A stretch of DNA of 64,000 nt from positions 65,164,001 to 65,228,000 of the forward strand of contig OZ076409.1 of NCBI GenBank assembly GCA_964187785.1, read 5' to 3'. This DNA is from Amphiscolops sp. MND2022. Lineage: Eukaryota. The stretch's first letter is position 1. The number at the start of each line of letters is the position of its first letter. The notes below the pieces were generated by a model that did not search any database, had not been told where the DNA came from, and saw only the letters and a program-made list of their open reading frames with translations. A program made the position numbers and the translations under genes. Shown here piece after piece: positions 7,311-59,555 of this stretch.

Positions 7311-7529
7311 TAGAAAGAGTTCTGAACCTGATGGTATAAGCAATGAAAAATACTCAAATGCTGCTCACCCGTGGTCGAAGAGCATCTCTCTAAAGCATTC
7401 AAGGAATGCCTCAAGATTGGAATTTCGCCAGAATGCCCTAAAATTGTAAAGGTTATCGCGCTCCACAAAAAGGTGATTACAGTGATGCCGAAAACGACCG
7501 TCCTCCAAGTTTATTGAGTTCACTGAGTA

Positions 7530-18216: not shown

Positions 18217-18498
18217 TTGATCCGATGAGTAAATAAATTGTATGCAATAAATAGTAATAGTTGTAAGCAATGCTGAGCGGCTGTTCTGCGGAATGGTCGA
18301 GTAATTGAATGATAATTCCGTTCTTTTCTTCTGTTCACGCCGCTTGCATGAATGGGAAAGTTTTCAGCTGGCAGACTGAATGACTTCCATTACGTCATAC
18401 TAATAGTATCGAATAATAATAATCTCATTGGTTTTACGCCACGTCTTCTGTTGGTTTATCTTGGTAGTTATCTTTTAGATTGCTTTGGATAGTAGAAA

Positions 18499-21400: not shown

Positions 21401-22426
21401 GCTGCACTACGTCGTTCTTTCCTTCGCGAGGGTCACTCGCTGCTCATGGGATTTTTGAGAGTGTTGAATGAATCTGCCTTTATGAATTCTCGCCTGTCCT
21501 CCAGTTTGAGTTGTTTTTCGCCGGATATGTTGCTTCTTGGCGAGGAATCATATACTGTTGAGCTCTTTCGTGGTCTGGTTGCTTGTTACCTAGAGTGTGG
21601 ACGTTTGACTGATGTAGAGGCCGAAGGGTCCTGTAATGAATTCAAGTCCTTCTTAGTGGAATTGCGTCGACGGAATCGCCGAGTGGTGTCCAACATCAAA
21701 GACACTTTTAGCTTCATGCGGGAGTCTGAGGCTTTCGGTTGTCGGGACCATTTGTCGCGTGTTGTTCAGTTGTCCTCAGTTCTGGTGGTACCCCGTGAGG
21801 TGTCATATCCTGATGTGGATATCTCGTTGAGTGGTGTAGCTGTTCCAGCAAAGATTCTTACTTCAGCTATTCTCTCTGTGCAGTCTTACGTTTCCTTCTC
21901 TGGGTTCAGTTCCGGGGAGTTGTTGACAAAAGACTGTCTGGATGATTTAAAGGTCAATCTCCCTGCTGGAAAGAGTTTCATCGATGACGTTAGTTTCTCT
22001 CCATGGACATCGGTATATCAGCATTGCCACCAGGAGTTGTACCGCAGTTTGCGTGATCGTTTCGACGCGTATTTCCTGGAACAGGTGGATGATTGGCGTC
22101 ATCGTCTGGGCACTCTGTCAAAGATGGCTGTTGCAGGTACTGGTGGTTCTAGTGTTGCGCCGTCTGCCGATGCTGCTGTTGTCAGTCCGCATGCTGGGGC
22201 AAGTGTGTCCCGTGATGCTGGTAGTATTCAAGATGTTTCTCCCAGTACGCCACCTCCTTCAGCTGCTAATGTTGTCGATAAGTCGCTACTGATGTGTAGT
22301 CCTGTGCGGTCAAGTGACGTTACCCGGGTTTTGCAGCAAAGACGCCAGGAACGGAAAGAAATGTTGTCTTCGAATCAAGCTTCATCGAGTGCTTCAAAGG
22401 ACAAGAAGAAAGGAAAGAGGCGATGA
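18499..22426 (+). CDS. Element A antisense spliced gene: C2H2 zinc finger plus hAT-transposase-like body lacking recognisable catalytic motifs (~1175 aa predicted)
   Basis: Predicted exons 18499-18889, 18984-19175, 19245-19408, 19518-19674 and 19803-22426, all GT-AG and phase-consistent (introns 2 and 3 least certain). C-x2-C-x16-H-x5-H finger. Colinear similarity to the element B antisense gene. Confidence 0.8.
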
Positions 22427-22748
22427 TGATTTCGTAATTTGTTGGAACGTTGAACTGTGTATCTTTATAGTTTGGTCTTTATTGTTGTTGGCACTTTGTC
22501 TACTTTGTTCTGTATTATGTATGTTGTTGAATGGGCTGAAGTCTTTTAATCAAATGTAGTTAGTATTGCAGCCAAAGAAAAGGGAATGGATATATTTGTC
22601 CGTAGTGGGCATGGAGAGTCTGTAGTATATTTTTGGCTCTTTGTATTGTTTTTCCTTGAGTGCGTAGACGAGTTGTAGGGATTTGAGTCAGTTTTAGGTC
22701 AATTGAGTGAGTAGTAGGTGTACCATTTCATGAATTCATATTGGAAGT

Positions 22749-28124: not shown

Positions 28125-29527
28125 GGCTGGTATTGTGGTTGTGCCACGGTTTGTGGCTGCTGATTTGCTGAAGGTTGTTGGATAGTTTCGGGTGCAGAGT
28201 GTTGTGGTAGGGGTATACTGTTGGCGCCTGTTGATTTAGGCATTTTCCACCATGTAGGGCGGTTTGCCCAGTTCGCCCCAGAATAGCAGTCTTTAGTCTC
28301 GTGGCTTAATTTGCCACATGTTTCGCAGGGATCGGTGATGTTATTGCTGGGGGGTTTTTGGTTCCGTTTGTCTCGGTTTGTCTTCCTGCAGTTGCGGAGG
28401 AGGTGGCCCTGGTGTCCGCAGCCAAAGCACGTGCTTGCAGTTTTCGGGTGTCTCCCCTGATTGGATGTGTTGGCGGGTTCGACATTGTGTATGCCGGTAA
28501 ATGTAGTGGATTCTGGATTTGCCAATCCGTTGAGTTCCATCTCCCGCTCTAGGTGCTGGACCATCGTTTCATATGATGCTGTTTCGAGGCGTGCCTGATT
28601 TAACACTCTTTTGAGATGTATCGGCATTTTTGCGTAGAAGGAGGTTTCTATAAAGCGGGGTGCATCGTCGGCGTATGCCTCTTGGGCAAGTTTCTGGTAG
28701 TTCTCCAAGAAATCTTGGAATGTTTGGTTCGCCGGGTCGAATGTGAGGTTTTCCCACTTACACCTAGCAGTGGCTATTGACTGGGTTTTTACATATCGTC
28801 GTCTGAATCCGGCGATGATGTCGTTCAGGTTGGTTTTGGTTGTTTCGGTCATGTTCCGAAAGGTTTGCAAGGCGTCTCCTCGCAGTAGGGAGTGGAAATA
28901 ATGTATTTTCTCTTGCTCCGTTATTTGGGGATGGACCTTCAAGCTTGTTTGAAACAAATCCTCGAAGAGTTCAAACTTTTCGTTTTTGCCGTCGAATGTT
29001 GGCATTGTCGTGGCAAGCGTTTTTGGTAGACGGGGTAATTGTGCTGTCTGTTGTTGTGTTGCATACAGGGATTCTAACAGCTTGTCAATGATTTCGTCGG
29101 AGTGCCTCTGGTTTGGAGGCGGCAGGCTCGAAGACCGGGGGTGGGTGTTGCTGGAGGTCGGTTCGCTAATTACTCCTGTCACCATGTTGGAACTCTCGTT
29201 CCTAGACAAACTAGCTTCTTCTAGCTCTACAGTAGGATTTCCGCTATTTTCAGTCCTGGTCGTCGAGTAACCTTGTTCTGAATTAACGCTCGATAAACTG
29301 TCAACTTTGGACGACAGGTTCTCAATCAATTTTAATATCTCACGTTGATTGAGTTCAGTGTCTTTGAGACGTTTGGAAATTCTATTCTCAATTTTATTGG
29401 ATATGTCTTCAAAATCCCTTTCCGAAAGTGTGGTGTTTTCGTCGTTAACAGAGCTTGCGGTTTCTACGTCAAACTGGCTAGTCGACTGATCACTCCTCAA
29501 CTTCCGTTTTTGAGATTTCTCAGGCAT
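28112..29527 (-). CDS. gag: Element A Gag, starting inside the 5' LTR
   Basis: FDGKNEKFELFEDLF capsid-like region and two CCHC knuckles (CFGCGHQGHLLRNC, CETCGKLSHETKDC). ATG at 29527 lies within the LTR (29185-31347). Confidence 0.92.
   Translation of the reverse strand: MPEKSQKRKLRSDQSTSQFDVETASSVNDENTTLSERDFEDISNKIENRISKRLKDTELNQREILKLIENLSSKVDSLSSVNSEQGYSTTRTENSGNPTVELEEASLSRNESSNMVTGVISEPTSSNTHPRSSSLPPPNQRHSDEIIDKLLESLYATQQQTAQLPRLPKTLATTMPTFDGKNEKFELFEDLFQTSLKVHPQITEQEKIHYFHSLLRGDALQTFRNMTETTKTNLNDIIAGFRRRYVKTQSIATARCKWENLTFDPANQTFQDFLENYQKLAQEAYADDAPRFIETSFYAKMPIHLKRVLNQARLETASYETMVQHLEREMELNGLANPESTTFTGIHNVEPANTSNQGRHPKTASTCFGCGHQGHLLRNCRKTNRDKRNQKPPSNNITDPCETCGKLSHETKDCYSGANWANRPTWWKMPKSTGANSIPLPQHSAPETIQQPSANQQPQTVAQPQYQPKNY
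29173..29184 (-). promoter_or_regulatory. Primer-binding site TGGTGACAGGAG (element A)
   Basis: Immediately follows the 5' LTR end (...CCAACA) and is identical over 12 nt to the element B PBS. Confidence 0.85.
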
Positions 29528-31347
29528 CTTGTAAAAATAGTGGAGGAACAATATTCCAATTAAACTTGAATCGTTACAAACGTAATGGAGGCTTCAGTTC
29601 AATGATTTTCCAAAGTTTTCCGAAACAAAAGTAATTATATTAAGCAAAGGCAATTAACTCGATTATTACAAAAGTAAAATTTTCAGGGAATGATTAATCA
29701 AACGCACTTGAAAAATAAAATTGTCTTCTCTCTTTTCCTAATCCCGCTTCAGGTATTTATACTTTACGCTAGACACGCGGAGAAAAACCCCGCGCGTGAA
29801 TTCACACCTTGTTCACCTCGGCGTCCTTTCTGAAGCGGGGAAATCCAAATAAGGTATTCTTCCTCGGGACTCGGCATTCGGTTTCAACCCACTTTAAAGA
29901 AAAGTGGGAATTCACTTCCTGCCGCTTCCCAATTCCGCGTCCCTTTCTTCTTCATTCCCCGCCTTTTCAAGACGCCGAAGGTGAAGTTGGCACTGAAATT
30001 CATGAACCTAGCTACTGAAGCGGGAAAAGGAAATGAAATTATCACCGAACAATCCCAAATTTTACTACTAGTAATTTAAGGGAAACATTAAAGAAATAAA
30101 CTAACAGCACTGATTTCTTCTAAATCAGATGATTATGGCCGTTAATTAGCACTTTAAATTGAAGCTAACGAAAAAGTCCTGGGTGAACGCCAGGTAACGA
30201 ATTTCATTTAGAGTGACCTGGCCGTTTGACCGGGCTATTGACTCAACTATGTATTAACAAAACATTGCATGTGAGGACTGGAAAAGGCAGCACTGGGGGT
30301 TGTTTTACTATATTATCGTCAAATATCGCATTTAGCAGGGGCAACATTGTTATTAGGTTAACTATAGGGCATGTATTAATTGAATACGTTCGGTCAGCTG
30401 TCCAGGCTCTTGTAATATTAAAGAAATTTAGCGCTCCGCCTGGGAAGTTGACTCAACTACAAGGTGGACCGAACGCGTTAAAAATACTACAAGCATCATC
30501 GATTATTACTCATTGGAAATACTTTTGGTATTTAGCTTCTTTTAAGCCACAAAACATTTATCTAGAGTTAGCATCGATTATTTGTACTTGATTGATCAGT
30601 TAGAGTGACTGAACGAGCGTCCCGGCGGTCGTCCCAGATTATAAATTTAGAACGGTCGTCCCGGTGGTCGTCCCAGATTATAAATTTAGAACGGTCGTCC
30701 CGGCGGTCGTCCCAATTATCGGGATCGACAAATCTTCAATCACACCTTTTCATGCTATAAATATCACGTTTTCGATCTTCACTATTGAATACTGCACAAT
30801 TTAAGCTTCTTCTAAGCTTTGGATTTGTATTCACTTCACACGTGACGTCACTTAATATATTAGCACTTTGATTAATTCGATCGAGCTCCCAGGCGTGCGT
30901 CCCAGTCTTTGCTGACCGGTGGCTTGACGAGTATAGTAGCTGAGTTAATACTGCACATTCGCGCTTGGCGCTGATTGGTTAATTAAAAGGACAGTGAGAA
31001 TTAGTGTGTTTTGCTACGCAGATATTGGGACGGTAGGCTGGTCAGTGCGCTGGTTGGAATAACTTCAATCAGCGTATTGGTCAAGCTACTGCAAACAAAT
31101 CACATTTACAACAAGTTATTATTATTTAATTATTTACATATTTATGTATTTCAGGTACTGCAGAGGATTGATGATATTAATATTATGCACTTACAGGGTT
31201 GTTCAATATCAATGAGTGTTTGTTTGTTGATTGTTTCCTTTCAGGTTTGTGATGGTTTATTAGCTTCTTCTTGGTTAATTTCTCCATTTCTTTCCTCTGG
31301 CGTTCTCTCTGTTCTTATTATTTCACGGCCCTGTGGCGGCTGTGACA
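29185..31347 (-). repeat. 5' LTR of element A
   Basis: Direct repeat of 15510-17672. Candidate TATAAATA on the minus strand at 29761-29754, ~230 nt upstream of the gag ATG. Confidence 0.96.
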
Positions 31348-40300: not shown

Positions 40301-40358
40301 TCTTACGTACAATACAGTATTACATTCCCAAACTTCTTTATTCCATTGGTATACAACA
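34362..40358 (+). mobile_element. Ty3/Gypsy LTR retrotransposon C (6.0 kb, short LTRs)
   Basis: 205-bp LTRs 34362-34566 and 40154-40358 (1 mismatch seen), 5-bp TSD ATTCC, PBS TGGCGCAGTCAG at 34567 (tRNA-Ser-like), PPT AGGGGGGGAA at 40144-40153. Confidence 0.96.
34580..39878 (+). pseudogene. Element C gag-pol, single frame interrupted by TGA (35459-35461) and a +1 frameshift near 39157
   Basis: Gag knuckles, IIDSGS protease, AWLDD RT, TDAS/ELELLAV RNase H and integrase DDE. The frames on either side of the TGA are continuous. After 39159 the +1 frame runs open to 39878. Confidence 0.88.
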
Positions 40359-43431: not shown

Positions 43432-45210
43432 TGTCGCAGGCTGCCGCCTGTGATGGCAACAACTATACGACCTCGGGATACGGACAAGAAATTACCCCAG
43501 GTACATTACCCATTTATTAAACTCAAAACTGCAATTGCCAAGACTCGCTTTAACTATTTTAGTTTATTTATCCAAACTGAATATTAGTCTGTTAAGTACA
43601 ATTTGGAATTGTCCAAATTGGGATGTTTTATGTTGCAAATGTGTTGAATACAATTACAGCAGAGCAATGTAATATAAAGCAACTGTAAGGCAGTATAGGA
43701 AACGTGTTCAAGTGATGCTAAGCGCTGATCCAAAAGCGTCACTTGAGCGCATTGTCTTATCCAATCAGAGCGCTGTATTTGTTGTGCTATATTAGCTTTG
43801 TTGCTATCATGGCCTAATTAGGCCTATTTCCTAAATAACGCTTGCTGTACTGTATTACTTGGTCAAACGGCCGGTTCCGGCCATTTTGTACAAATAGTTA
43901 ATTGACGTTGCTTTGATAGTAATAACCGGACCTATTATTTCAAATTCACTTTAGTCCACTTGTTGATGCTATAATTATACTCCCCGTCTGCCTAAATGTG
44001 AGAAATGAGCATAATAATAATTGCAGTTGGAATGAAGCCTCTCCCCACCTTTTCCCAGTGCAAGACTGAAACCCCGGACATGGCCAGTTTCGGCCTCGTG
44101 AAAATAACTTGCACCAATTTCACTGCTGCGTTTGTTGATCATGATTTATTCAATTTGATACGTGAATTAGACGGCACATGGCAAGCCGCGTGGCAGCACG
44201 TGCTGTCTCAACACCTTGTAATAAGGAATGCAATGAACAGTGCATTGTTAACATTTTTGTTATTTGTATTGATGTTAAGTACGTTAGTTATTTGTTTGAT
44301 GTTAACTCACGGTCGATGTAAGTTGGGCACGCCGCCTGTCACACCTATAACCACGTGATGTTTGGAATAACATTTGACCTTACTAGGACGAATTCCTGAA
44401 AGTCTTTGAGGTGCTAACTATCTAACTGTATGTCGGTCCTCATGACCATTAAGGAATTTGTCGATTACAAATGGAATTTGATCACACTTGTAAGGGTATA
44501 TATAGCAATGTTTCCTTGAGGTGATTATTAAATCCATACCGATTGTTCAGATCAGTTGATTTGTTTCGCATTTATAGATTGCAAGACTAGATTACCAAAT
44601 AAAATATTCAACCTTGAAATCTTGATGCCTACTACAAGGAAACAAAAGAAAGCTAGAAAGTCTAGAGGAATTGAGATGCTTTCTGACTTGGAGAACCTTG
44701 ACATAATGCTAGGGGAAAACCACTTCAATAGAAATGAAAGGGACGGAAGTGTTAGTAGCAATTTCGGCAGAAGGCCTGGTAGTACCTCTGCAGATGAACT
44801 AGGAAGTAATGGTGAAAACAGGCACTCAGCCACAAGGGACATTGATCCTGGTAATAATGCCGATTATGGTCGAAACTCAATTGGTGGCAACTCTAGTGCT
44901 GAGATTAACAGGTTGTCAAGTGAATTGAACTCTAGATTATCAAGAGAGTTAGATGATATGATGTGTAGTGTCAATTCTCAGATCCAAAGGGCAATTAGTG
45001 ATGCAATAAGCAACCAAGTACTCCCACAAATCCAATCCGCCCTTAGTGCCGGGTCAGGACACATGACACAAAACAGATGGGACATTCCGTCCGAGAGACC
45101 GGAAATAAATTCCGAAGGACTGCAAAATACTAACCCCAAAGACAGTTCAACTAGCAAGCATAACCATGACCATCAGAATGATGGTGGTATCAATTTAAAT
45201 GCTTACGACA
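43432..45210 (+). repeat. 5' LTR of element B
   Basis: Direct repeat of 57777-59555 (offset 14345). Candidate TATATATA at 44497-44504, upstream of the gag ATG at 44625. Confidence 0.96.
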
Positions 45211-46337
45211 TGGTGACAGGAGACAACGAATCTCCGAATCAAGTTCCTGAGTTTCTCACAGGACGGATTCTATCGCGGAATCATCTTGACCAGTCCTATG
45301 AAGACATCAACCTTAACACGACGATCCCAGCACAAGAAAGACCCGCTCCGGTTGCCGAATCTGATCCAATTACTAGACTGGCAGATGTCTTGACAAACAT
45401 GCAGAATCGACCAACAGCCCAACAACTCACCATACGCCCGGTCAACTCAAATACCATGACCTTTGACGGCAAAAGTGAGAAATTTGAACTGTTCGAAGAT
45501 CTGTTTCATACTATGATCAAGATGCAGCCAGAAATGACTGAACAAATGAAGATTAACCATTTCCACTCGCTTTTGAGGAAGAATGCTCTTCAGACGTTCA
45601 GAAATATCAACTCGACCAACCGACAGACTCTTGAAGACGTTTTGGTCATTTTCCGACGAAAATACGTCAAACCCGAGTCACAAGCGACTGCCAAGCACAA
45701 ATGGCACCGCTTGGTCTTTGATCCCAACACGATGAAATTACCGGATTTCCTTGAAGAATTGAATCAAGGGGCAGAAAAAGCATTCGGCGATCATGCACAA
45801 AAAATGATTGACAGCCTATTGTACGCAAAACTGCCTCCGAAACTCAAGCGATCAGTCAACATGGCCAGATTAGAAAATGGCTCTTACGACGAAATAGTTG
45901 CTCATTTGGAGAGGGAACTAGAGCTTAACGCCCTTGAGGAGTCAGATGACCTACCCATGGCAACAATGACCTCCTCATCCTCCAAGACTAAAACCCCTCT
46001 GTCCACTAATCAAATGTCAGATATAACTTGCAACTACTGCAAGGAAAAGGGCCACATGGTCAAAGACTGTGAAAAACTCAAAAAGAAGAAAGAAAAAGAT
46101 GCCCAACAAGGCAAATCGACGGAGAAGAAAACGTACCCTAAATGCGGGACTTGTGGCAAGAAAAATCATCCAGAGGAGCGATGTTGGCAGGGAGCAGGTG
46201 CTCACTTGAAACCCAAACGAACCAGACCTGAAGATTCTTCAGACACCGACAATGACTCCAAGGCACCCAAACCACACAACAAACCAACGTCCTCCAATAC
46301 CCAATCCTCATCAAACAAAGATGAGTCAAAAAACTAA
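44625..46337 (+). CDS. gag: Element B Gag, starting inside the 5' LTR
   Basis: FDGKSEKFELFEDLF region as in element A, and CCHC knuckles CNYCKEKGHMVKDC and CGTCGKKNHPEERC. About 195 codons lie in the LTR. Confidence 0.92.
   Translation: MPTTRKQKKARKSRGIEMLSDLENLDIMLGENHFNRNERDGSVSSNFGRRPGSTSADELGSNGENRHSATRDIDPGNNADYGRNSIGGNSSAEINRLSSELNSRLSRELDDMMCSVNSQIQRAISDAISNQVLPQIQSALSAGSGHMTQNRWDIPSERPEINSEGLQNTNPKDSSTSKHNHDHQNDGGINLNAYDMVTGDNESPNQVPEFLTGRILSRNHLDQSYEDINLNTTIPAQERPAPVAESDPITRLADVLTNMQNRPTAQQLTIRPVNSNTMTFDGKSEKFELFEDLFHTMIKMQPEMTEQMKINHFHSLLRKNALQTFRNINSTNRQTLEDVLVIFRRKYVKPESQATAKHKWHRLVFDPNTMKLPDFLEELNQGAEKAFGDHAQKMIDSLLYAKLPPKLKRSVNMARLENGSYDEIVAHLERELELNALEESDDLPMATMTSSSSKTKTPLSTNQMSDITCNYCKEKGHMVKDCEKLKKKKEKDAQQGKSTEKKTYPKCGTCGKKNHPEERCWQGAGAHLKPKRTRPEDSSDTDNDSKAPKPHNKPTSSNTQSSSNKDESKN
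45211..45222 (+). promoter_or_regulatory. Primer-binding site TGGTGACAGGAG (element B)
   Basis: Directly follows the LTR end ...TTACGACA and matches the element A PBS. Confidence 0.85.
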
Positions 46338-49300
46338 CTTCGCCACGACTCCAATACAACCAACTAATATCCGTCCGTCAATACATCAGGTCGGATCCTC
46401 CGACGAAAACTTTCCATGAATACCAACAACAATTGATGGGTTACCCCTCTGTTGTCTGGCAGCAACAGATGGAAAAAGCTACCATTATCACCTATAATAA
46501 TACCCATTTGCTCCAAAAACCAATTCCTGTATGGGACCCTGATTACACATCTGCTTTCACTAGCCGATTCAGGCCCATTCCCTTGGTAGACGACTACAAC
46601 CCTACCTACATAGATCCTGACTACGGACGAGATCCCTATTGGGATACCGAACTTTACAACCAGGATTTGTTGCAATTCCAATACGTTATCGATGACATAG
46701 AACTCTATAACAGATCAGTCCACGACAATCCACCAATCACCCATAACAAGAAAACCAGAGCATTGATTGAAACATGGCAGATGAATGATGGTACAAGACA
46801 TCCGGTGTTCCCAAACCCCTTGGGGACCGAAACCTCAGACAAACCAGAAGAAACAATACCACAGTCACTACTTGATGAAAGTCAGTTCCAGAACATCCTC
46901 ATCACTAGAGAAGGAGAACCAGACTGTATTCCTCTGTCCACCAGCATAAACTTGAAATGCAAAAAACGCATGCTGTATTTCCCTATGGACTTTGGGGAAC
47001 TGACCATAGATGGACTTATTGACACTGGTGCTTTATCCAGTGCAATCCCTGAAATGGACCTCCGGAAAATCAGGCTCCTATCGCCGCAATCAGTCATCCG
47101 GGAGGGTCCACCTCCGAATTTCCAGATAATGGTCGCAAATGGGCAACTAGAAACTCCAAAGAGTACGATAGAGCTCAAATTTGAAGTTGGTGACATAGAG
47201 TTCCATGAAATTTTCATAGTAATGGAACACTTGACAGGACCGATTATAGGACTCATGTTCCTACAGAGAAACCATACAGTTCTGGACATGAGGCAAGGAA
47301 TACTGAACTTTCCATTCTTTTCGATGCAGCTCAAAACAGCTGATCACAAATACTCGAATGTACTCGAACCAATTTTGAATCCTACCGAAATAACCATTCC
47401 GTCAAATGACAGAGTCCTAATTAGGACCAATTCCCTATTGTACCCTGAAAACACGGTCACAGGGATTTTACAACCGAGCGACCTTCTCCATGAAGAAGGC
47501 GACATCACATTCTGTCCAGCCTTGGTCAGTTTGAATGATGGCAATATACAGATACAGGTAAACAATTTCACAGACCACCCTTACAAGCTCAAAAAGGGAC
47601 TCCATATTGCCAGTTTCTCAGTCATGACGCCAGAACAGATGAAATACGTTAAACCGGTAGACCCAGCTTCAACCTGGCATTTGCTACAAAATGACCAAGA
47701 GCAGGCAGCCCATTACGTCAGTAGTCTCATCAAGACTAACAAGAATCCACAAAATACCGAAAACTACTGGTTCCCAACCCCAGAGAACCCAGGGAATCCG
47801 GAAGAACATACACCAATCCAAAAAAGGATACTCCGTGAATTACTAGCCCTACAGGAACTAGAATCACTTGATCCCACAAAGGACGAGGAATCTAGAACAA
47901 AATTCCTGGAAAACTTTGACTGGAAAGACTCCACATTCACACCTGATGAAAAAGAGAAAATCGAACGATTACTAGTGGAGTTCCATGATATTTTTGCGAG
48001 ACATAGATTCGACATAGGCATGAATGAGGAATTCAAAGTGAAGCTGACACCCAAAGATGATTCCCCAGCCTATAGTCAGAGCCTCCCTGCACCGATAAAC
48101 TTAAAGGAGGACATATTAGTTGAATTAGCCATGCTCCACAAATATGGCATAATAACTACCTTACCGTTCTCGAAATACGCCAGCCCAATATTCGCACAAA
48201 AGAAGCCGAATGGGAAACTGAGACTTCTGGTTGACTTGAGAAAAATCAACAACCTAATCTCTGATGATTATATTAACAATAATCATCCAGTCAGTACCCT
48301 AGTCGATGCCGCCCAACACATGGCAGGCAAGAAACTCTTTTGCAAGTTAGACTGTTCACAAGCGTATCATTGCCTTCCGATGGCTGACCAACGTTCAATC
48401 GAAATGTTGGCCTTTAACTTTGCAAGCCGCACATTTGCATATAGACGACTGGCACAAGGCCTTAATAGAGCACTGTCCGCATTCTCCAGCTTTATGAGAG
48501 AGTACCTTGACAAAGTCATAAAAGCGGACCAATGTGCACAGTATGTAGACGATATTGGCATCGCAGCCAACGACGCCGATCACCTCATTGCTAACCTGAG
48601 AGCAACTTTCAAATGCATCCAGGAAGCAGGCCTTAAATTGACGATGCACAAGTGCCATTTTGGTGCCACAGAAATCGATTTCCTTGGCAGGACAATAACC
48701 GCACAAGGCGTCAAGCCCCAACGGCAGAATGTTCAGAATTTCCTAGAAAAAACCAAATTTCCGAAGTCGAAAAAGGCTCTACAGAGATATTTGGGTTTCT
48801 TGAACTACTACCGGAATTATGTCCCAAGACTGTCTGAACGCCTTGCTCCGTTCTACAAGATGCTGAAGAGTGACGAAAAAGTCCTAGTGTCCAAAGAACT
48901 GGTTCAACAATTTGAGGAAATCAATCGAGCTCTGGACAAATGCTGCGACTTGGCCCTACAACAACCCATCCCGAACAAGCAAATTGCCCTAATGACAGAT
49001 GCAAGCTTTGGTGCTGCAGGATATGCAGTACTAATTGAAGATGACCCGAGTCAGAAATTCACGTCAATCCGCAAATCATATGCACCGGTCGCTTATGGTT
49101 CAAAAACCTTCACCCCAGCCCAGATAAAAATGTCGATTTATGCAAAGGAATTCCTCGCGATTTATTTCGCATTCAAAGAATTTGGGCATATTTTCTGGGG
49201 AGCGCCGAAACCGGTCATAATCCTAACTGACAACAAAGCCGTAACGAGATTTTTCCAGACGAAAATCGTACCCCCAGCCCTGTGGAATGCATGCGACTAT

Positions 49301-51541
49301 GTAATTCAATTCAATTTTGTCATCGCGCACATCCCAGGAGCGCAAAATACGGCCGCGGATTATTTATCCCGATTGGAAGCCGATCCGAAAGACAAATTAG
49401 TCATGAAAATCCGCGAAGATGTACAAACACTGCCAGTAGAAATAAACGTCCAATCAGCCGGAGTCTCACAGGAAGAGCAAATCTTCTACACAAATGACGA
49501 CGATGAGACTGAAGAACAATATTGGGCGAGGAAAGAAGCAATCAGGAAAAACCCTGTAACTGAAGAACCTACTGTCACAATACAAACTCTATCTACTAAC
49601 TTAGTCAAACAACAACCTGAAATACAGGTCCGATTGAGGAAAACGAACCAGATAATTATTGAGCAATCCAAAGATACAGTACTGCAACAACTGAAAGCGA
49701 AGCTCCTTCATGAAGAGTACTCAGAAAACATACTGCAACAAGATGCTCGATACAGGCATTACGCTAATAATCTGGAAAGAATTGTCATCAAGGAAGACAT
49801 ACTAACAAGGCAATATTTTGATGAAACTGGGAATATAAAATACCATCAAATTCTTCTCCCGCAACACTTGCTGCCAGAATTGCTTCAGTCCCTACACGGG
49901 ACAGCCCACAAGCACCCAGGCATTTCAAAGATGCTGCAGGAGATCAGACAGAGATACTATTATCCCAACATGGCGAAACATGTCAAAAAGTGGGTACAAG
50001 GGTGTGAACAATGTGCAAAGGACAAACGAGTCCCAAATGCAACAATCACGCCCGAACTACTTAACTTGCCGGAATGGGACCTTGGACCCGAAGACGCCAT
50101 GCAAATCGACTTATTGCCGAATCTTCCCCCAAGTGGAGGATACGAAAATGTTTTAACTGCAATTGATGTCTTCTCTCGATACTTGTTTGCTTATCCTCTT
50201 ACGGACGCATCAGCGATCAATGTAGCTAAAGCAATCATTGATATTATGACCAAACATTCTTACCTACCGACGACGCTCATTACGGACAAGGGAACTGCCT
50301 TTACCTCCACGATCATTGCGGAAATTACACAGATTTTAGGCATTACCCTAAAATGTGCAACGACCAAACACCCGCAAACTATCGGGAAGTTAGAGCGAAC
50401 ACATGCCTCATTGAAAACGAATTTGAAAATGGCATGTGGAGAATATCGCCGACAATGGCATAAGTATTTGCCTTTAGCAGTTCTCAATCATAACACTAGT
50501 TATCATGCCAGTATCGGATGCGAACCGACAAGAGTGTTCCATGGGAGAATCCCATATAACATCTTGGATCACAAACTTGGAATGAACCCAAATGAGCAAA
50601 TCCATCCGACTACTGAATTCGCAGAAGAAATCCAGAACCGAACCAAACTCCTTATTGACAAGACAAAGCAGAACATCATGCAGTCATATATCAAATATAA
50701 GGAGTATTACGACAGGAAAGCCAAAGCCGCCCCACTCAAAGAGGGCGATTACTGTTTTGTATTACAACCGAAAGCGGATCATCAAGGATCAAAAATTCCA
50801 TTTAGGGATTATCGTTGGGTTGGACCGTTCATAGTCCAGAAGATTTTACCTAATGAGAACTACATCATCCGCAGGCTTAATACAAATAAAACGCAGATTT
50901 TGCATCGAATTCGTCTCAAAAAGTTTATTCCGAATCAGCCACTTGAGGACAATTTCCGAGAACAGCGCCTACAGCCGGACGACGAAATAATCATTCCGCA
51001 AGACGACTTGTATGTAATAACGTGGGAAACAAACTTTGGTGAGCAACTAGCTACACGAGGCAACGAGCCGATTCCGGCTAGCCTGACGAATGGCGAGAGG
51101 CCGACTACGCCAGAAACGAATGTGAATGATGCAAACGAGAATGAAAGTGATTATGTAATCACGACTGATTATCCGAATGACGTCAACGACGCTGTGCGCA
51201 GTAGAACCGAAAGAATGAGAAATGACGTCAGCAATGCTAATGAACCTAGTGAAGCAAATGAGAATGAAAACTCTGATTGGCCGAATCCGGCCGTTTCCAC
51301 AACGGATCAAGAAAAACCTGTGCCGAATACGGTTGAAAGACTAAAAGACGATGCGAATTTTCCAGAAAAGAATTTGATGAATGAAAACGATGCACAAAAT
51401 TCTCCGAAAAAGGGGGATGATATTATCGTGCCCGAAATATCGCAAAATGATGCTAGAAAAGAGAGCTTGAGCCCCAGAGGAGGGAAATATAATCTCAGGC
51501 CTAATCCTAACCCAAACTACTCAGAAGACTTCAGATACTAG
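46328..51541 (+). CDS. pol: Element B Pol (protease, RT, RNase H, integrase) expressed by -1 frameshift
   Basis: LIDTGA, YVDD, TDASF/KEFLAI/TDNK/ADYLSR, integrase HHCC + DDE and WVGPF. The -1 frame is open from AAAAAAC (46328-46334). Confidence 0.95.
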   Translation, partial: KKLTSPRLQYNQLISVRQYIRSDPPTKTFHEYQQQLMGYPSVVWQQQMEKATIITYNNTHLLQKPIPVWDPDYTSAFTSRFRPIPLVDDYNPTYIDPDYGRDPYWDTELYNQDLLQFQYVIDDIELYNRSVHDNPPITHNKKTRALIETWQMNDGTRHPVFPNPLGTETSDKPEETIPQSLLDESQFQNILITREGEPDCIPLSTSINLKCKKRMLYFPMDFGELTIDGLIDTGALSSAIPEMDLRKIRLLSPQSVIREGPPPNFQIMVANGQLETPKSTIELKFEVGDIEFHEIFIVMEHLTGPIIGLMFLQRNHTVLDMRQGILNFPFFSMQLKTADHKYSNVLEPILNPTEITIPSNDRVLIRTNSLLYPENTVTGILQPSDLLHEEGDITFCPALVSLNDGNIQIQVNNFTDHPYKLKKGLHIASFSVMTPEQMKYVKPVDPASTWHLLQNDQEQAAHYVSSLIKTNKNPQNTENYWFPTPENPGNPEEHTPIQKRILRELLALQELESLDPTKDEESRTKFLENFDWKDSTFTPDEKEKIERLLVEFHDIFARHRFDIGMNEEFKVKLTPKDDSPAYSQSLPAPINLKEDILVELAMLHKYGIITTLPFSKYASPIFAQKKPNGKLRLLVDLRKINNLISDDYINNNHPVSTLVDAAQHMAGKKLFCKLDCSQAYHCLPMADQRSIEMLAFNFASRTFAYRRLAQGLNRALSAFSSFMREYLDKVIKADQCAQYVDDIGIAANDADHLIANLRATFKCIQEAGLKLTMHKCHFGATEIDFLGRTITAQGVKPQRQNVQNFLEKTKFPKSKKALQRYLGFLNYYRNYVPRLSERLAPFYKMLKSDEKVLVSKELVQQFEEINRALDKCCDLALQQPIPNKQIALMTDASFGAAGYAVLIEDDPSQKFTSIRKSYAPVAYGSKTFTPAQIKMSIYAKEFLAIYFAFKEFGHIFWGAPKPVIILTDNKAVTRFFQTKIVPPALWNACDYVIQFNFVIAHIPGAQNTAADYLSRLEADPKDKLVMKIREDVQTLPVEINVQSAGVSQEEQIFYTNDDDETEEQYWARKEAIRKNPVTEEPTVTIQTLSTNLVKQQPEIQVRLRKTNQIIIEQSKDTVLQQLKAKLLHEEYSENILQQDARYRHYANNLERIVIKEDILTRQYFDETGNIKYHQILLPQHLLPELLQSLHGTAHKHPGISKMLQEIRQRYYYPNMAKHVKKWVQGCEQCAKDKRVPNATITPELLNLPEWDLGPEDAMQIDLLPNLPPSGGYENVLTAIDVFSRYLFAYPLTDASAINVAKAIIDIMTKHSYLPTTLITDKGTAFTSTIIAEITQILGITLKCATTKHPQTIGKLERTHASLKTNLKMACGEYRRQWHKYLPLAVLNHNTSYHASIGCEPTRVFHGRIPYNILDHKLGMNPNEQIHPTTEFAEEIQNRTKLLIDKTKQNIMQSYIKYKEYYDRKAKAAPLKEGDYCFVLQPKADHQGSKIPFRDYRWVGPFIVQKILPNENYIIRRLNTNKTQILHRIRLKKFIPNQPLEDNFREQRLQPDDEIIIPQDDLYVITWETNFGEQLATRGNEPIPASLTNGERPTTPETNVNDANENESDYVITTDYPNDVNDAVRSRTERMRNDVSNANEPSEANENENSDWPNPAVSTTDQEKPVPNTVERLKDDANFPEKNLMNENDAQNSPKKGDDIIVPEISQNDARKESLSPRGGKYNLRPNPNPNYSEDFRY

Positions 51542-51794
51542 GAAAAGAGTAAATTGCGTCCAAAAGAACGCTTAGCTCATTTTCTTTTTCCTTTTATTTC
51601 TTTTTTTTCTGGCCCCGGAAGCTGAATTTTCAGAATAAACAACAAGGCATTAAAGCAATGATCCCGCACAAGTGAATAAATATGGGATCATGAAACAAAG
51701 AAATGATAGCAGAATACAAATGTGACAACAAAATGAGAAATAAAGAAATCAACAGAGTTTACAGTTTGATGTACATAAATACATATGTACAGAA

Positions 51795-54700
51795 TCAGGA
51801 TTTAGTAGAAGAATCCTTACTAGGACTACCAACGACAGAGGATGACGATGATCGGGAAACACTCCTTCCCTTCTTCCGCTTCTTGCTACTGGGGATCCTT
51901 ACTGCGGACTGATCTTCAACGGTACTACTCTCTGCCAAATTGACCTGCGTTGAAACCCTCTTCGGAGCTGAGTCGGCTTTGCGGTGAGTGGACAGGAGAT
52001 ACTTATAGATTCTTGACCGACCGAAAGTGTCAGTATAAACCCAAGGATCGTACTCTGAGGAAAAGGCAGCACGTCCAAAGGACTCAGCTAGAGCAGAGAA
52101 CTTGGCCAAGTGGGAGTCTTCACTGCTCCGTAAAACCGATCCGGCAACATTGGCCATGTAACTCTGGCAAGGCAAGACCAGGTCCGTAAATCTGCTTTGC
52201 CCTCCTGCAGTGGTGACCTCTCCAAAGGTGACATCTGGGTAACTTGGGCTGACGGTGGTTGAACACAAACAACTCAATTTGAAGAGATATAACAAGTGTG
52301 GACGCTCATGAAGAAAATCAAGCCCCATCAGGAATTGAATCAAATCGGGTTCCACGCTAGTGATATCAAAGCTGGAACCGAAGGCAGTCTGGAGATGGTC
52401 CAGCAACTGAATATACTGGTCCCGACACTGAGACTCATTTGAATCTTCAACCCAAGATCGAAGTACAAAGGTGTTGTAGAGTACCTCGAAGTGCCGCAAA
52501 GCTACATCCGTGGGTCGCTTCAGCATTATATAAGGATCAAAGGCCGCCAATCCTTTTATGAGGTTGGTGCTGAAAGCTGTCTTCTCGAGTACTCCATTAA
52601 TCAAAAACTGGATGTACTGCTGGCTGTCCTTGACGAAATCAGCTTTTACCTTATCGGCAGTGGCCAGGATGGCAGGACGTTCAGTTTTCTGGCCGAAATG
52701 GATTCCATCAGCCTTGACTCTGCTTGCCGTTGCCACTCGATTGCTCATCTTGAGACGAATCAGGTATTCGTCTCCGGGGAGGAAAGTACCCTCACTGGTC
52801 TGGAACCGGAGGAGGAGAAACCAAGCGTTGGCAATTGGGGCAGTGTCCGGAGTATAGATTCGGGAGCAAAGCAGGCTGAGGAAGCGGCTAACTTCTCCGC
52901 ATAGATAGAAGGAAGCATCCCGGCGGTATTGCAGATTCACTGTGAAGCTGGAAACGACTAAAAACAAAACTGATGTCCAACTCAAGACAGTTTTCTCTCA
53001 CGAAAATTGTACAGGACTACACTCACAGTCATTGACGATCTTGCTGAAGAACTCCAGCTTAACGGTGAAGAATTCGTCACATATCAGTGACCACTCGAAA
53101 CTTTGTGCCTGGAACAAACATATGGCCAATTGACGATTGGAAAACGGACCTTTAGTTTGTTTGACGGATAAGGACAACCCAAACCCTTAGGGGCTTAAGT
53201 GCAGATAAGGAAATCTAACCCTTCCTCTGGAGCCAGATCCTTCTTGCAAGGGTGCGTGATTAGTGAGGTAGCGCACCACAGACTTCCACTCGGCAATGAG
53301 CTCTCGGCAAAGAATGGGCAGGGTTGGTACTTCTAGCTTGCAACTGGTTATGGCCTGAAATACCAATTAAACCTGCGTTAGCATGATAGGGATATCTAAA
53401 CGTCCTGACCCAGTTCCCGTTCCCTAGATGAAGATTCTATAAGAAAACTACTCACCTTGGTGAGCTCAGGACTTCTGATGACCCAGTCTTCCATGAGAGA
53501 ACCGCCCAGAGAGACCATCAGAGCTTGCAGGACAGAGAAAAAATCTATTTTCCCAAAGACGCTGTAGCTGGTTTTATGCATGAGGCAAGCTAGGGAGAAA
53601 TGTTCAAATCGAGGACAGCTCTGAACCCCTTGGTTGTAATATCCAGACTCATCAATGGTTCTGGGTAGATCTGGATGACATCCCGAACAGGCGACTATTC
53701 CGGGCTTTGTGGACACAGCGGAGAGGAGGCGAGAAAGAGATCCCAGTTCGCCGGTAACATCTGTAGTGAATCGGGAGCTACGACAGACGAACACCCTACA
53801 GAGTTCAGACCCCTTCCAGAACTTGATGGACATGTGTTTGAAAATTCCTACTGTTTCAAATTCGAGGGAGAAGCACTGTTGGGAGTTGACTTGCTCCGCG
53901 ATTTCATCAAGACAACAGATGAAGAAATGTTGGAAAATCGCCTAAAGACAGAAAGCACCTTTTGGACTAAATAGGAAAGAGGAAGACTTAGGAGAGACTG
54001 TCAATGAGTGAAGCGAAAAGTACTTACCGACAATCTTTCTTCACCCCAATCAAAATCGTTGAAACTGCTTTGATGGTTGGTGAACGATCCAATTCGGGAC
54101 CACAGGTTGCGCAAGACCATCATATCGCCTTGGGTCCTGATGTAATCCCCAACCAGGCAGAGCTGAGTTTTGAGGCGAGCTTCAGGGGTGGCCATGGTAG
54201 TGGTGGAGCCTTTGACGAAGTCGTCATAAAAAGGAAAGCGCTCACCAATGTCCACTAATTCAACATTCCTGAATTTAGGCAGCTCTCTAGCTAACTCCAC
54301 CTTGGTCAGGAGTTTCCCGTTCCCACCTCGGACTCGGTGTTGCGTCTTCCCTGTGACTGGATCGACACTGCGGAGGTGTTCGTATCGCCAACGCTGGTCT
54401 CGCCGCAGATGACGTGCAGTCCGATGGTGCCTGAGGATTTCGTATGGCCCCTTTGACTTTATGGAAAAATTCTTTTTACAAATGTGGCACCAGACCATGA
54501 GTGGATTATGAAGAGGATCTGCTGGGCCAGAAATGAAGGATCTCGTCCATCCAATTTTGCTAAAGAATTCCTCCCGCATAGGGACCCCACGTCTGGAGAG
54601 GGCCTTGCTTCCTTTCTTCTTTTTAGTCCCGGAGGATCCAGCGCTGGGTGCGGCTAGAGCTTGATTCCTAACCTCAAGCAACGTATCATCTTGGCTACTG

Positions 54701-56019
54701 GACTCTGGGGCATCAATCTCAACATCCTGTGATATGTCTTGACTGGGAGTTTGCGGTTCAGGAGCGCCTTGACCTTGTGTGACCTTCTTGAAGGACTTGG
54801 TTATAAGATCCATTTCCGTTGCGCTGTCAGTCTCCCCATAATAGGAGGACTCTCCTGTCATTTCAGTCTCAGTTGATCCAACATCTCTGTTCCCCAGAGT
54901 GGCTTCCCTTTCGGTGTCACTTCCGCTGGAATCTCCCATGGCTGCAGGTCCAGGAGTCTGAGCTCGTCTACCCGAGTAGAAATGTGCAGTCCTGGATGGA
55001 GCAATGGCTGGCCTGCCTCGAACCGCATCAATAACCATTTTTTCCATGGTTGAGAAGGACCGTCCTAGAGTCTCATCGGTAAGGACTCTCAACAAGTGAT
55101 ATACTTGCGGCTCTGTGAAGGTGACGGTGGATTGGCCTACGGGGAACCTCGAGGATGGCGACTCATCGAAATACTCCTTGAGAATTGCCCGACTCCTTCC
55201 TGAGAGGTGTGGTGGTTCTTTCTGAGTTGCGCCTTGCCCGGACGACGGCCCACTGGTACCTGGAACGTGAGGGTCAGGCCCAGTTTCGTCCCCTCCATCT
55301 GTTCCAGAGGCGTGAGAGAAAGGATGACTTCCATATAAAGCTACTGGAGCTATCACGCTGGACTGGTCGGTTGCCCCCTCATCTCCGCTGGGCTCTGTGA
55401 GGTATCGAACTCTTACTTCCCCACCGGGGAGGGGTGGAGCGTCTCCTACCGAGGAAGCTGCTTCCGTGTCCTGCTGCAGGGTTGGGCTATCTCCAGTGGT
55501 GTTGGCTGAAAGATCAATATCCACAAGTTCAACTAATTGGGATCCGGGTGTCCCGACTACTCGAAAGGCTGACTCTAGAGCAGAAAGGTCAGCACTTGGG
55601 GTCTCCCCCACATTATCAGAAAGTGGGGTGCTCGCTCTTCTAGGCTCAGTGATGGGCGTAATGACAGGATCCTTTGGGGTATCAAGATTGACTTCTGAGA
55701 ATTGGCCTCTTTGCTCTGTCTCCTCTTGCGGAAGGCTTGATGTTTGCGCTCCCTCCAACTGACGTACCATATTGTCTGCATATGTAGTAACATCTGGGTC
55801 ACTATCGGCGTTATGGGAAGAAGTGGCTTCGTCAATTCGTTGGCCGTGTGATTCTTGGGACGTAGCTGGATGCTGGACTTGCTCAGTCTGTTCAGACAAG
55901 GGGTTGCTTGTCGAAACGCTGTCAGAGGGGTTAGCTGGTGTATTCACAACTTCAGTTGTTTGGTTCTCTAAACGAAAAGAGATAAAATTTGGCGGTATGC
56001 TTCCTCGAAAAGAATCCAT
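51795..56019 (-). CDS. Element B antisense spliced gene: C2H2 zinc finger plus hAT-transposase-like body lacking recognisable catalytic motifs (~1285 aa predicted)
   Basis: Predicted exons 56019-54028, 53941-53456, 53354-53220, 53108-53027 and 52957-51795. Donors GTAAGT/GTGAGT/GTTAGA/GTGAGT, acceptors TTTAG/TTCAG/TCCAG/TTTAG. The joined frame is stop-free and colinear with the unspliced last exon of the element A gene. Confidence 0.85.
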
Positions 56020-57082
56020 ATTACCGCGTTAGAAATCTTCCGGAAGTATCTTAGACTTGAACAAAACGTGTTATCACGTGCCTATTAGTGGAAACAGGAA
56101 GCGCTGTACGAACGAAATTTAGCCCTGATCAAGCTAAGCTAGTTCAACATGTGAAAACCAGACCAACCTGTACTCGAAGACATGCTTCTCCAGTATCGTT
56201 AGTCCAAAGTAGAAGAATGAGGAACAACGAAGGGACTGTGTGATTGAGCCAATCTCGGCTGGGGAAGGAAGGAACCAGAGATTCTCTGAGAGGGAGATGC
56301 CACTCGTGATGAGAGGAAAGGACGTCGTAATAGCAAAGTGTAACGAATATGCAAATGTGTTGAATTTGAATGGAGACAAATGGAAGTTAGATGGAATTGA
56401 AAATGTAACAATCAGATAGGATCGGAGAGTTGGAGTTCGTGGCTGAAGATTTACCAGACTAATATTATTCGATTATCTACATATTTAAAACTGTACACGG
56501 AGTCTGCCAGCGAAATGTACAGAAAATTCCTCGTTATTTATAACTTCGTTAGTTGAGTGGCCGATTACGGCCTTTTACCCTACTTACCTTTACCGTTTTG
56601 TTCCGTTGCCTTTATTACCCTTAGTTAGAAATCGCCATTTTAGAATAGTCAAAATTATTATTTTTCGCCATTTTATTTATTAATTTTTCATTTTATCAAC
56701 GGGTAATTCTGATTGGCTAACGCCATGTTGAGAAAGAGCTACGACGAGCGCAGTTAATTACCTTCAAGCGACCTGTTAATTACCCACTTGAAAATAGTGA
56801 AGTTGGTTTTGATGACTCGAGTGTTATTCACACCTCTCCAAGCGGTGTAGTAGATGGGGGGTAAACATTGGATTATCAAAGGCAGCCAACTAATTATGGA
56901 ATTCCATTCAAGAATGTTTATGTCGGATTGGGAGATTCGACTGAGGAATTCTACCGCCACAACGAATTGCCGGGAAAAGACCGAACTCGGCTAATACCCT
57001 AAGTTTGATAAATTCATTCAATCTCATATTTCATCGACAAACAGTTGACTTGCCTAGACTCAAAATTGCAAAGAAATACATA

Positions 57083-57865
57083 ATGAGCAAATTTAACCTC
57101 TCAAGGAAATTATTTGATCTTGAAGGTTGCGACTCAGATGAATCTACTGATTCAGTAATCTACATCTCTAGCGACGAAGAAGAGTCCTCATACTGGGAAT
57201 CGGACTGTTCTACCGACACGGAACAATTAATCGCCCGCATAGAGAAAGAGGTTACGTCGAGCCCAATGCTGATCGCAGGACGAATTATGACGGTGGACAC
57301 AACGGAAAATGATATGGTGGCTGGACCAAGCACGTCAAAGACGGACACTGAGATGACACCTAAACTGGATCACAGGTATTTCGACATAGACAGGTGCTAC
57401 GCCCCCCCGAAGAAGGCCGGAAAATCAAAAATCGAGATTTGTAGTACGATTTTGCCAGTTTTGGAGTCGCCCCTATCTCCCCCGGATCACGAAAAGGGCC
57501 CAAGCAAAGACACCCCTTTGGTCCAATCAACTAGTGGGAGCTTCCGTGCCTCATATCATATTCAGAACTCGAGGCCCTACGACGATATAAGCAGACAACG
57601 GTGTACTAGTTGCATGGTCTGCGGGAGAGCAGTAGATGAAATCAAAGAGGAAAAAATCAAGTGGTATATGGACAGATCGACCCCCAGAGGAGAGCCTGAG
57701 TACATCACCAAATTGAGGCGGGAAGCGTACGTGAACGGTCTTAACGCCGGCAGCTTACTTTTCATTGCACCCGCAGTGTCGCAGGCTGCCGCCTGTGATG
57801 GCAACAACTATACGACCTCGGGATACGGACAAGAAATTACCCCAGGTACATTACCCATTTATTAA
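57083..57865 (+). CDS. Element B sense accessory ORF (acidic N-terminus, CxxCxxC) extending into the 3' LTR
   Basis: Open frame of 260 codons from ATG 57083 that crosses the LTR start at 57777. Same position as ORF 17566-18216 in element A. Confidence 0.65.
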   Translation: MSKFNLSRKLFDLEGCDSDESTDSVIYISSDEEESSYWESDCSTDTEQLIARIEKEVTSSPMLIAGRIMTVDTTENDMVAGPSTSKTDTEMTPKLDHRYFDIDRCYAPPKKAGKSKIEICSTILPVLESPLSPPDHEKGPSKDTPLVQSTSGSFRASYHIQNSRPYDDISRQRCTSCMVCGRAVDEIKEEKIKWYMDRSTPRGEPEYITKLRREAYVNGLNAGSLLFIAPAVSQAAACDGNNYTTSGYGQEITPGTLPIY

Positions 57866-59555
57866 ACTCAAAACTGCAATTGCCAAGACTCGCTTTAACT
57901 ATTTTAGTTTATTTATCCAAACTGAATATTAGTCTGTTAAGTACAATTTGGAATTGTCCAAATTGGGATGTTTTATGTTGCAAATGTGTTGAATACAATT
58001 ACAGCAGAGCAATGTAATATAAAGCAACTGTAAGGCAGTATAGGAAACGTGTTCAAGTGATGCTAAGCGCTGATCCAAAAGCGTCACTTGAGCGCATTGT
58101 CTTATCCAATCAGAGCGCTGTATTTGTTGTGCTATATTAGCTTTGTTGCTATCATGGCCTAATTAGGCCTATTTCCTAAATAACGCTTGCTGTACTGTAT
58201 TACTTGGTCAAACGGCCGGTTCCGGCCATTTTGTACAAATAGTTAATTGACGTTGCTTTGATAGTAATAACCGGACCTATTATTTCAAATTCACTTTAGT
58301 CCACTTGTTGATGCTATAATTATACTCCCCCTCTGCCTAAATGTGAGAAATGAGCATAATAATAATTGCAGTTGGAATGAAGCCTCTCCCCACCTTTTCC
58401 CAGTGCAAGACTGAAACCCCGGACATGGCCAGTTTCGGCCTCGTGAAAATAACTTGCACCAATTTCACTGCTGCGTTTGTTGATCATGATTTATTCAATT
58501 TGATACGTGAATTAGACGGCACATGGCAAGCCGCGTGGCAGCACGTGCTGTCTCAACACCTTGTAATAAGGAATGCAATGAACAGTGCATTGTTAACATT
58601 TTTGTTATTTGTATTGATGTTAAGTACGTTAGTTATTTGTTTGATGTTAACTCACGGTCGATGTAAGTTGGGCACGCCGCCTGTCACACCTATAACCACG
58701 TGATGTTTGGAATAACACTTGACCTTACTAGGACGAATTCCTGAAAGTCTTTGAGGTGCTAACTATCTAACTGTATGTCGGTCCTCATGACCATTAAGGA
58801 ATTTGTCGATTACAAATGGAATTTGATCACACTTGTAAGGGTATATATAGCAATGTTTCCTTGAGGTGATTATTAAATCCATACCGATTGTTCAGATCAG
58901 TTGATTTGTTTCGCATTTATAGATTGCAAGTCTAGATTACCAAATAAAATATTCAACCTTGAAATCTTGATGCCTACTACAAGGAAACAAAAGAAAGCTA
59001 GAAAGTCTAGAGGAATTGAGATGCTTTCTGACTTGGAGAACCTTGACATAATGCTAGGGGAAAACCACTTCAATAGAAATGAAAGGGACGGAAGTGTTAG
59101 TAGCAATTTCGGCAGAAGGCCTGGTAGTACCTCTGCAGATGAACTAGGAAGTAATGGTGAAAACAGGCACTCAGCCACAAGGGACATTGATCCTGGTAAT
59201 AATGCCGATTATGGTCGAAACTCAATTGGTGGCAACTCTAGTGCTGAGATTAACAGGTTGTCAAGTGAATTGAACTCTAGATTATCAAGAGAGTTAGATG
59301 ATATGATGTGTAGTGTCAATTCTCAGATCCAAAGGGCAATTAGTGATGCAATAAGCAACCAAGTACTCCCACAAATCCAATCCGCCCTTAGTGCCGGGTC
59401 AGGACACATGACACAAAACAGATGGGACATTCCGTCCGAGAGACCGGAAATAAATTCCGAAGGACTGCAAAATACTAACCCCAAAGACAGTTCAACTAGC
59501 AAGCATAACCATGACCATCAGAATGATGGTGGTATCAATTTAAATGCTTACGACA
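57777..59555 (+). repeat. 3' LTR of element B
   Basis: Direct repeat of 43432-45210. Confidence 0.96.

Follow-up and report, generated by a model that had tools for sequence, protein, structure and literature searches.

How can a gene with several introns persist inside an element that is copied through RNA, and how did two related genes of this kind come to be interrupted at different places? Both questions are raised by a 64,000-nucleotide stretch of the genome of Amphiscolops sp. MND2022, the whole of which is called the window here and in which three LTR elements were found. Two of them, A and B, are very young Ty3/Gypsy retrotransposons with paired LTRs ending in TG..CA, a target-site duplication and an intact gag gene followed by an intact pol gene of PR-RT-RH-INT order (Pfam). 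The LTRs of B (43432-45210 and 57777-59555) differ by 3 mismatches in 1779 nt and those of A (29185-31347 and 15510-17672) by 1 in 2163 nt. In each element a long extra gene occupies the opposite strand between pol and the 3' LTR; the two encoded proteins are homologous but distant, with 26% identity in a finger region and 18% in a C-terminal stretch. In the 1.07-Gb genome, each search with the antisense gene returned about 6,800-9,100 first-look candidates, figures that are not copy numbers.

Table 1 Features of elements A and B (positions of the window; gene structures of the antisense strand are predicted).
Feature	Position	Strand	Remarks
Element B	43432..59555	+	Complete Ty3/Gypsy LTR retrotransposon; LTRs, 5-bp target duplication
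B gag	44532-46337	+	Intronless
B pol	46325-51541	+	PR-RT-RH-INT (Pfam); intronless
B antisense gene	51795..56183	-	Predicted hAT-fold protein, ~1285 aa
B antisense exons	56183-56168 (likely), 56003-54028, 53941-53456, 53354-53220, 53108-53027, 52957-51795	-	
B fifth intron (likely)	56167-56004	-	164 nt, phase 1; after 16-nt ATG exon; branch-point-like CTAAC 29 nt from end
B intron i1	54027-53942	-	86 nt, phase 0; also in clades C and D, absent in clade A
B intron i2	53455-53355	-	101 nt, phase 0; in B and D, absent in A and C
B intron i3	53219-53109	-	111 nt, phase 0; also in C and D, absent in A
B intron i4	53026-52958	-	69 nt, phase 1; also in C and D, absent in A, precisely lost in one C subfamily
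Element A	15510..31347	-	Complete Ty3/Gypsy LTR retrotransposon; LTRs, 5-bp target duplication
A gag	28112-29593	-	Intact
A pol	22749-28235	-	Intact
A antisense gene	18499..22426	+	1179 aa predicted
A antisense exons	18499-18889, 18984-19175, 19245-19451, 19549-19674, 19803-22426	+	
A introns 1 to 4	18890-18983, 19176-19244, 19452-19548, 19675-19802	+	94, 69, 97 and 128 nt; all phase 1
Folded body of A protein	19934..22126	+	CxxC..H..H finger and hAT transposase fold (RNase H core with helical insertion)

The surroundings of the two antisense genes hold further features. The third element, a young Gypsy element unrelated to A and B, lies at 34362-40358 (+), with 205-bp LTRs that are 99.5% identical, a 5-bp target duplication and a sense ORF3 (39150-39878, 242 aa) that had no Pfam match. 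Additional sense-strand ORFs, measured from stop to stop, run into the 3' LTR in B (56945-57865, +, 306 aa) and in A (17566-18363, -, 265 aa); Pfam searches with both were blank except for a weak zinc-finger score in that of B (E 0.051). A purine-rich tract is absent beside the 3' LTR of A (17673-17700) and of B (57745-57776), so the plus-strand priming site looks atypical. Outside the elements, a DUF659 (hAT-type) transposase ORF at 13326-14862 (+) is apparently split over two frames.

The interruptions of the antisense genes are predicted to be U2 spliceosomal introns, a reading well supported by comparative evidence. They have GTRAGT-like donors and T-rich acceptors, and their GT/AG ends are kept across subfamilies past synonymous saturation. 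Among 24 B-like loci, the donor GT was found in 24/24, 24/24, 24/24 and 23/24 at i1 to i4 and the acceptor AG in 24/24, 24/24, 22/24 and 21/24, the misses coming from two loci that are rearranged and from two point mutations, which bears out the four introns of 69-111 bp that an earlier note on this DNA had placed in the conserved body of B. Its four predicted N-terminal introns of A (69-128 bp) also hold: all 16 A-like loci have a donor GT at each of the four and an acceptor AG at three, the acceptor of intron 2 occupying the same column in ten loci and being shifted by 12 nt in six. The body of A is likewise uninterrupted as described, its frame being open from 19803 to 22426. Intron lengths in B-like loci drift through all classes modulo 3, internal exon lengths are constant in intact copies, and in diverged intact copies introns are about 33-70% identical as against 57-85% for exons. 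Removal of the predicted introns leaves single frames of 1179 aa in A and 1285 aa in B with zero internal stops, and a profile built from intronless A-type proteins alone found the same four junctions in B, albeit with splice-site matrices trained on the very same sites. That the gaps instead separate distinct ORFs, as spacers in decay or stretches with frameshifts, is hardly credible: a branch-point-like CTAAC or CTAAT is present in the last 55 nt of only three of nine introns, which would suit it, but the conserved GT/AG ends, the T-rich acceptors, the free drift in length, the exact restoration of the frame and the intronless homologues of clade A all speak against it. The antisense gene is under purifying selection, with dN/dS in the spliced body of 0.02-0.10 in eight of the nine measurable pairs (of 28); the ninth, a near-identical pair, gave 0.40 and the other 19 were saturated.

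At its 5' end, B likely has a fifth predicted intron, for which the upstream ATG (56183) and the donor are kept in 26/26 loci and the in-frame acceptor in 25/26. A second in-frame ATG, at 56019, is conserved as well (24/26 loci), so that two starts are possible for the B gene. A GTAAGA near 55416, put forward earlier as a donor within the first long exon of B, did not withstand comparison, as its GT occurs in B only (1/15 aligned loci), its best acceptor scores 2.3 against 12-15 at true sites and the frames are open in 15/15 loci. The related statement that B is one open frame where A has introns stands only in part: the long exon of B does read through, but the N-terminal regions of the two proteins do not align, which precludes a position-by-position comparison, and the likely fifth intron adds an interruption to B. 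The first introns of both genes contain blocks above ordinary intron conservation, at 18910-18940 (+) in A and within 56004-56167 (-) in B, where they include CACGTG and CTTCCGG/CTTCCTG motifs; these blocks are possible promoter or enhancer elements.

Intron positions were then considered across the family, on 142 annotated loci comprising A, B and 140 loci fetched with outside-type proteins as queries. These were taken from top-150 match lists for diversity and are not a random sample; they were annotated by profile-guided spliced alignment, with a later profile trained on predictions from the same clades and hence partly circular. Among the loci covering each site, i1, i2, i3 and i4 were present in 0/30 at each in clade A, in 27/27, 27/27, 25/26 and 25/25 in clade B, in 69/69, 0/66, 64/65 and 59/65 in clade C, and in 15/16, 16/16, 16/16 and 16/16 in clade D. 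Clade C (69 loci) combines three of B's introns, whose junctions were also found there with the A-only profile, with the last one of A, and all four of B's occur in clade D (16 loci). Intron 4 of A, which ends its N-terminal series, and the last N-terminal intron of C are both phase 1 and occupy the same aligned position before the same helix. Intact copies have four phase-1 N-terminal introns in A, three in C (four in two subfamilies), one in D and likely one in B; ab initio calls in this region were noisy in decayed copies, and we relied on them only when copies gave the same result. Nearly all N-terminal introns of intact copies are phase 1, which makes the exons symmetrical, so that skipping one could leave the frame intact. 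The claim that intron positions differ completely is thus correct for A and B as a pair and fails for the family, in which B, C and D share sites.

In clade D (L079, L081-L090) the last body intron measures 372-866 nt and contains tandem repeats in 7 of 11 scanned loci, mostly of 32-33-bp (or 65-70-bp) units with the common core CCGCATAGTGACGTATA. This array, which resembles the subterminal repeats of hAT elements, could be protein-binding.

An antiparallel RT/RH lies downstream of the antisense gene in 136/142 loci, and the RT/RH tree of 118 loci resolves four monophyletic groups that correspond to the antisense clades, which indicates one capture. Independent captures of two different hAT genes by A and B, each bringing its own introns, would accord with the low identity of the two alignable segments and with the unalignable N-termini; since clade C links A and B by its sequence as well as by the sites of its introns, and the RT groups coincide with the antisense clades, we reject this as largely refuted and very improbable.

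The direction of change could be read at some of the sites. A profile search of cluster representatives revealed exon-sized proteins that end exactly at the i1 junction of B and yet are closer relatives of A. When a tree was built from the finger exon (166 columns), A nested in the outside proteins P0187/P0191/P0194, then P0236, then P0245, with support of 100, 99 and 97. The ORFs of these proteins, known here as proteins alone, stop at the i1 site, where the read-through is donor-like, from which we infer that i1 also occurs in these outside relatives. Because A is nested among presumed i1-bearing relatives, the missing i1 of A is read as a loss. A has likely lost three adjacent 3' introns (i1, i3 and i4) precisely, the outside relatives polarising i1 only and the loss of i3 and i4 resting on midpoint rooting and parsimony. 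Coding length is equal at sites with and without an intron, with 33 residues between conserved anchors across i2 in 16/16 loci and 61-64 across i3/i4 in 15/16. A second loss is seen in a subfamily nested deep in clade C (L056, L091-L094), where 5/5 copies lack i4 only and the flanking exons join at the exact nucleotide at which relatives carry an intron of 67-144 nt. The RT tree rooted with element C of the window was unstable, FastTree and IQ-TREE disagreeing, and the midpoint root falls between A+C and B+D; with the root among the four clades unsettled, i2 and the internal N-terminal introns are unpolarised, and i2 could be a gain.

Candidate gains were found in the N-terminal region. L041-L043 have an extra phase-1 intron of 74-76 nt that divides into 108+111 nt the 219-nt exon of their sister group and is absent from three successive outgroups; it is a candidate gain, although the site might be homologous to that of the third intron of A and have been lost repeatedly elsewhere. 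A similar extra phase-1 intron in L073-L075 is also a candidate gain. These two C subfamilies, with L041-L043 nested among groups without the intron, the restriction of i2 to B+D and the A-rich genomic strand (A 0.31-0.33 against T 0.20-0.24) would fit an intron-poor ancestor followed by separate gains in each lineage, aided by the U-rich antisense strand, which is the history closest to that of the earlier note. We nonetheless hold a gain-dominated turnover to be distinctly unlikely, as B, C and D agree in three body positions and in the phases of these, outside relatives that are nearer to A than C is would also have i1, and parsimony argues against repeated gain at the same sites. A wholesale move to new positions accordingly finds no support as the difference between A and B: C and D have the sites in common, the introns persist beyond the point at which synonymous sites saturate, and the changes that could be polarised are losses. 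Changes in presence or absence do occur, and in this respect the family can serve for studying intron change, as had been suggested.

Several apparent losses were discarded, namely L081 (the donor is hit by a deletion of 12 bp), L120 (which retains the intron), L021 (acceptor mutated) and, as a precise loss of i4, L128 (an imprecise deletion in a decayed copy with 4 frameshifts). Extra introns called in the low-complexity C-terminal tail or at scattered sites (for example 791/0, 762/0 and 484) did not recur from one profile or copy to another, and we discounted them as artefacts of alignment or as insertions. Among ten loci picked for long open frames, no processed retrocopy was found, all ten retaining i1.

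The persistence of these introns is likely explained by their orientation, as the earlier note had argued. On the genomic RNA the introns are present as their reverse complement and would therefore survive copying, the principle on which reverse-oriented globin vectors rely (PMC6775231). Over both antisense genes and over gag-pol, the genomic-RNA strand contained no donor/acceptor pair at a threshold that detects the four introns of B, the matrices used having been trained on family introns, which makes the scan circular for the positives. Near-identical copies of B at different places matched across the whole four-intron region in 40/40 of those scored. The predicted introns have thus been stable through many rounds of copying, with rare and mostly precise loss.

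The encoded protein was characterized by structure prediction, an alignment-based model (109 rows) reaching a pLDDT of 91.8 and a single-sequence model 35. In Foldseek, the model matched the Hermes hAT transposase (E 1.7e-5), and all 7 matches at E<=0.001 were Hermes; in VIA, Hermes scored Z 12.9 (rmsd 5.4, 402 aligned) and the next match Z 6.0. The Hermes structures were PDB 8edg/4d1q, and the C-terminal helix of the model matches the end of Hermes. Neighbours in the Atlas, taken as a lead only, were mostly hAT-type families with scores of 0.86-0.90, including ZBED1, FAM200/ZBED5 and KIAA0543. The CxxC and two His of the finger are kept in 81-82 of 82 loci, without a zf-BED Pfam match. A conserved DDE triad was not found at the columns expected for it, which vary at the end of beta1 (R/Q/E/V), at the end of beta4 (R/S/E/L) and after the insertion (D/V/A), as placed from the secondary structure of the model and the Hermes positions, which we take to be D180/D248/E572. 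Pfam and PDB sequence searches returned no family for the antisense protein, and a metagenome scan gave 190 pattern matches and no confirmed relative. The modelled protein thus has the fold of a hAT (Hermes) transposase without the conserved acidic triad, and is likely a catalytically dead, putatively DNA-binding accessory protein. With hAT transposases and domesticated hAT proteins it has in common a C2H2-type finger and an RNase H core with helical insertion, and it differs from them in the triad, in lacking a Pfam hAT match, in its long acidic N-terminus and in being borne by a retrotransposon, not by a DNA transposon or at a host locus.

Taken together, we consider it probable that a conserved hAT-fold gene lying antisense to gag-pol descends from an intron-rich ancestor, likely with introns of both the A and the B set, and differs between A and B mainly through rare, precise intron losses, likely templated by its own spliced mRNA, with perhaps a few gains besides. 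The history would have begun with a single capture of a genomic, unspliced copy of a hAT transposon in reverse orientation. DNA transposase genes often bear introns (PMC12477816), which fits such a capture. The donor hAT element was not found, and a DUF4371 search for a host donor gave no match, its controls being unmatched as well. The captured protein would have lost catalysis and been reused as a DNA-binding accessory protein, expressed from an antisense promoter of its own. The spliced antisense mRNA may occasionally have been reverse-transcribed by the RT of the element; having the polarity of minus-strand DNA, it could template plus-strand synthesis or give a cDNA for gene conversion. 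Intron-less cDNA would then enter an element by template switching or recombination, and amplification of the recipient would fix the intron-less state in a subfamily. Under the RT model for how introns are lost, losses are precise, affect adjacent introns together and involve the 3'-most one (PMC3652778); as this model predicts, both polarised losses are precise and extend to the 3'-most intron, three neighbours having gone together in one of them, although two events are too few to establish a 3' bias.

Two observations complicate this account. B and D are without the internal 5' introns of A and C yet keep the 3' ones, and such 5' absences, if they are losses, are a misfit to a simple poly(A)-primed RT model. 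In addition, A and L001/L007/L010/L013 differ in RT by a dS of only 0.03-0.05 and in their antisense genes by a dS of 1.8 or saturation; the antisense cassette has been exchanged between near-identical pol backbones within a clade. Recombination in this region is thus frequent, and such exchange can confound parsimony. The same loss history could have come about without cDNA, the introns being deleted at the DNA level in a master copy by double-strand-break repair or microhomology. The 5' absences of B and D, a misfit to poly(A)-primed RT, speak for this, microhomology-mediated intron loss is reported in animals (PMC3698931), and the deletion of i4 in L128 demonstrates that DNA-level removal also occurs. 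That deletion, however, is inexact and belongs to a copy carrying four frameshifts, in contrast to the exact fixed losses; inspection by eye of the i4 ends in the relatives of L056 revealed no obvious repeat, and A lacks three adjacent introns with its coding length unchanged. We therefore regard deletion at the DNA level as unlikely and retain loss through spliced mRNA as the preferred reading.

Among known elements, introns on the sense strand occur in Penelope-like retroelements, and HBZ of HTLV-1 is a spliced antisense gene with a single splice. Our literature search, which covered mainly journals open to all readers and no Repbase-type reports, retrieved no paper on an antisense gene of hAT origin with several introns inside a Gypsy element. 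The closest counterparts are the antisense ORFs between pol and the 3' LTR termed aORF-3R, in maize Grande, rice RIRE2, Retand (TRP28/PF04195) and Botrytis Boty (PMC7264820, PMC11963269), which have the same position and orientation in Ty3/Gypsy elements, are kept in most copies and, like the present gene, have no assigned function. The main text of these papers does not contain the word intron (PMC7264820, PMC11963269), whereas the present gene has 4-7 predicted introns; and the aORFs are said to lack similarity to other transposons and their origin is called unknown (PMC7264820), whereas the present protein has a Hermes/hAT fold. PF04195 (Transposase_28, Retand TRP28) had no Pfam match in the window proteins, in 28 A-type members or in 35 fragments. 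Antisense transcripts of Drosophila TART have multiple introns, which this retrotransposon likewise keeps because they are spliced on its antisense strand, but TART is a non-LTR telomeric element for which antisense transcripts are described, and not a conserved coding gene with lineage-specific intron loss (PMC1636488). Reverse beta-globin lentiviral vectors share the mechanism, orientation blocking loss through splicing, and are engineered (PMC6775231), whereas the present case is natural, long-lived and multi-intron. Rotifer LTR elements are also retroelements with extra genes, their captured ORF3s being GDSL, DEDDy or env-like (PMC5408684). Antisense extra ORFs at the aORF-3R position are known in plant and fungal Gypsy elements, and what is added here is the loss and gain map of predicted antisense introns.

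How introns are lost and gained has long been asked, usually by comparing distant species; here the process can be followed in one gene family for which a single genome yielded thousands of first-look candidates. With 4-7 predicted introns inside an RT-encoding element, exact losses have been fixed in datable subfamilies, alongside candidate gains. Compared with RT-mediated loss elsewhere, equally precise, adjacent and 3'-most, the affected gene sits within an amplifying element that itself encodes RT, with two polarised cases to date. For antisense accessory genes, whose origin has been called unknown (PMC7264820), our results support one origin, the insertion of a DNA transposon in reverse with its genomic exon-intron structure retained. 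More tentatively, and on balance with some doubt, the element may edit its own cargo gene, the spliced antisense hAT mRNA being copied by its own RT and recombined back to give exact subfamily losses, while the U-rich strand breeds new introns. If this is true, the datable copies, thousands in one genome, would constitute a natural record of RT-mediated intron loss and gain and would offer a bench assay for both.
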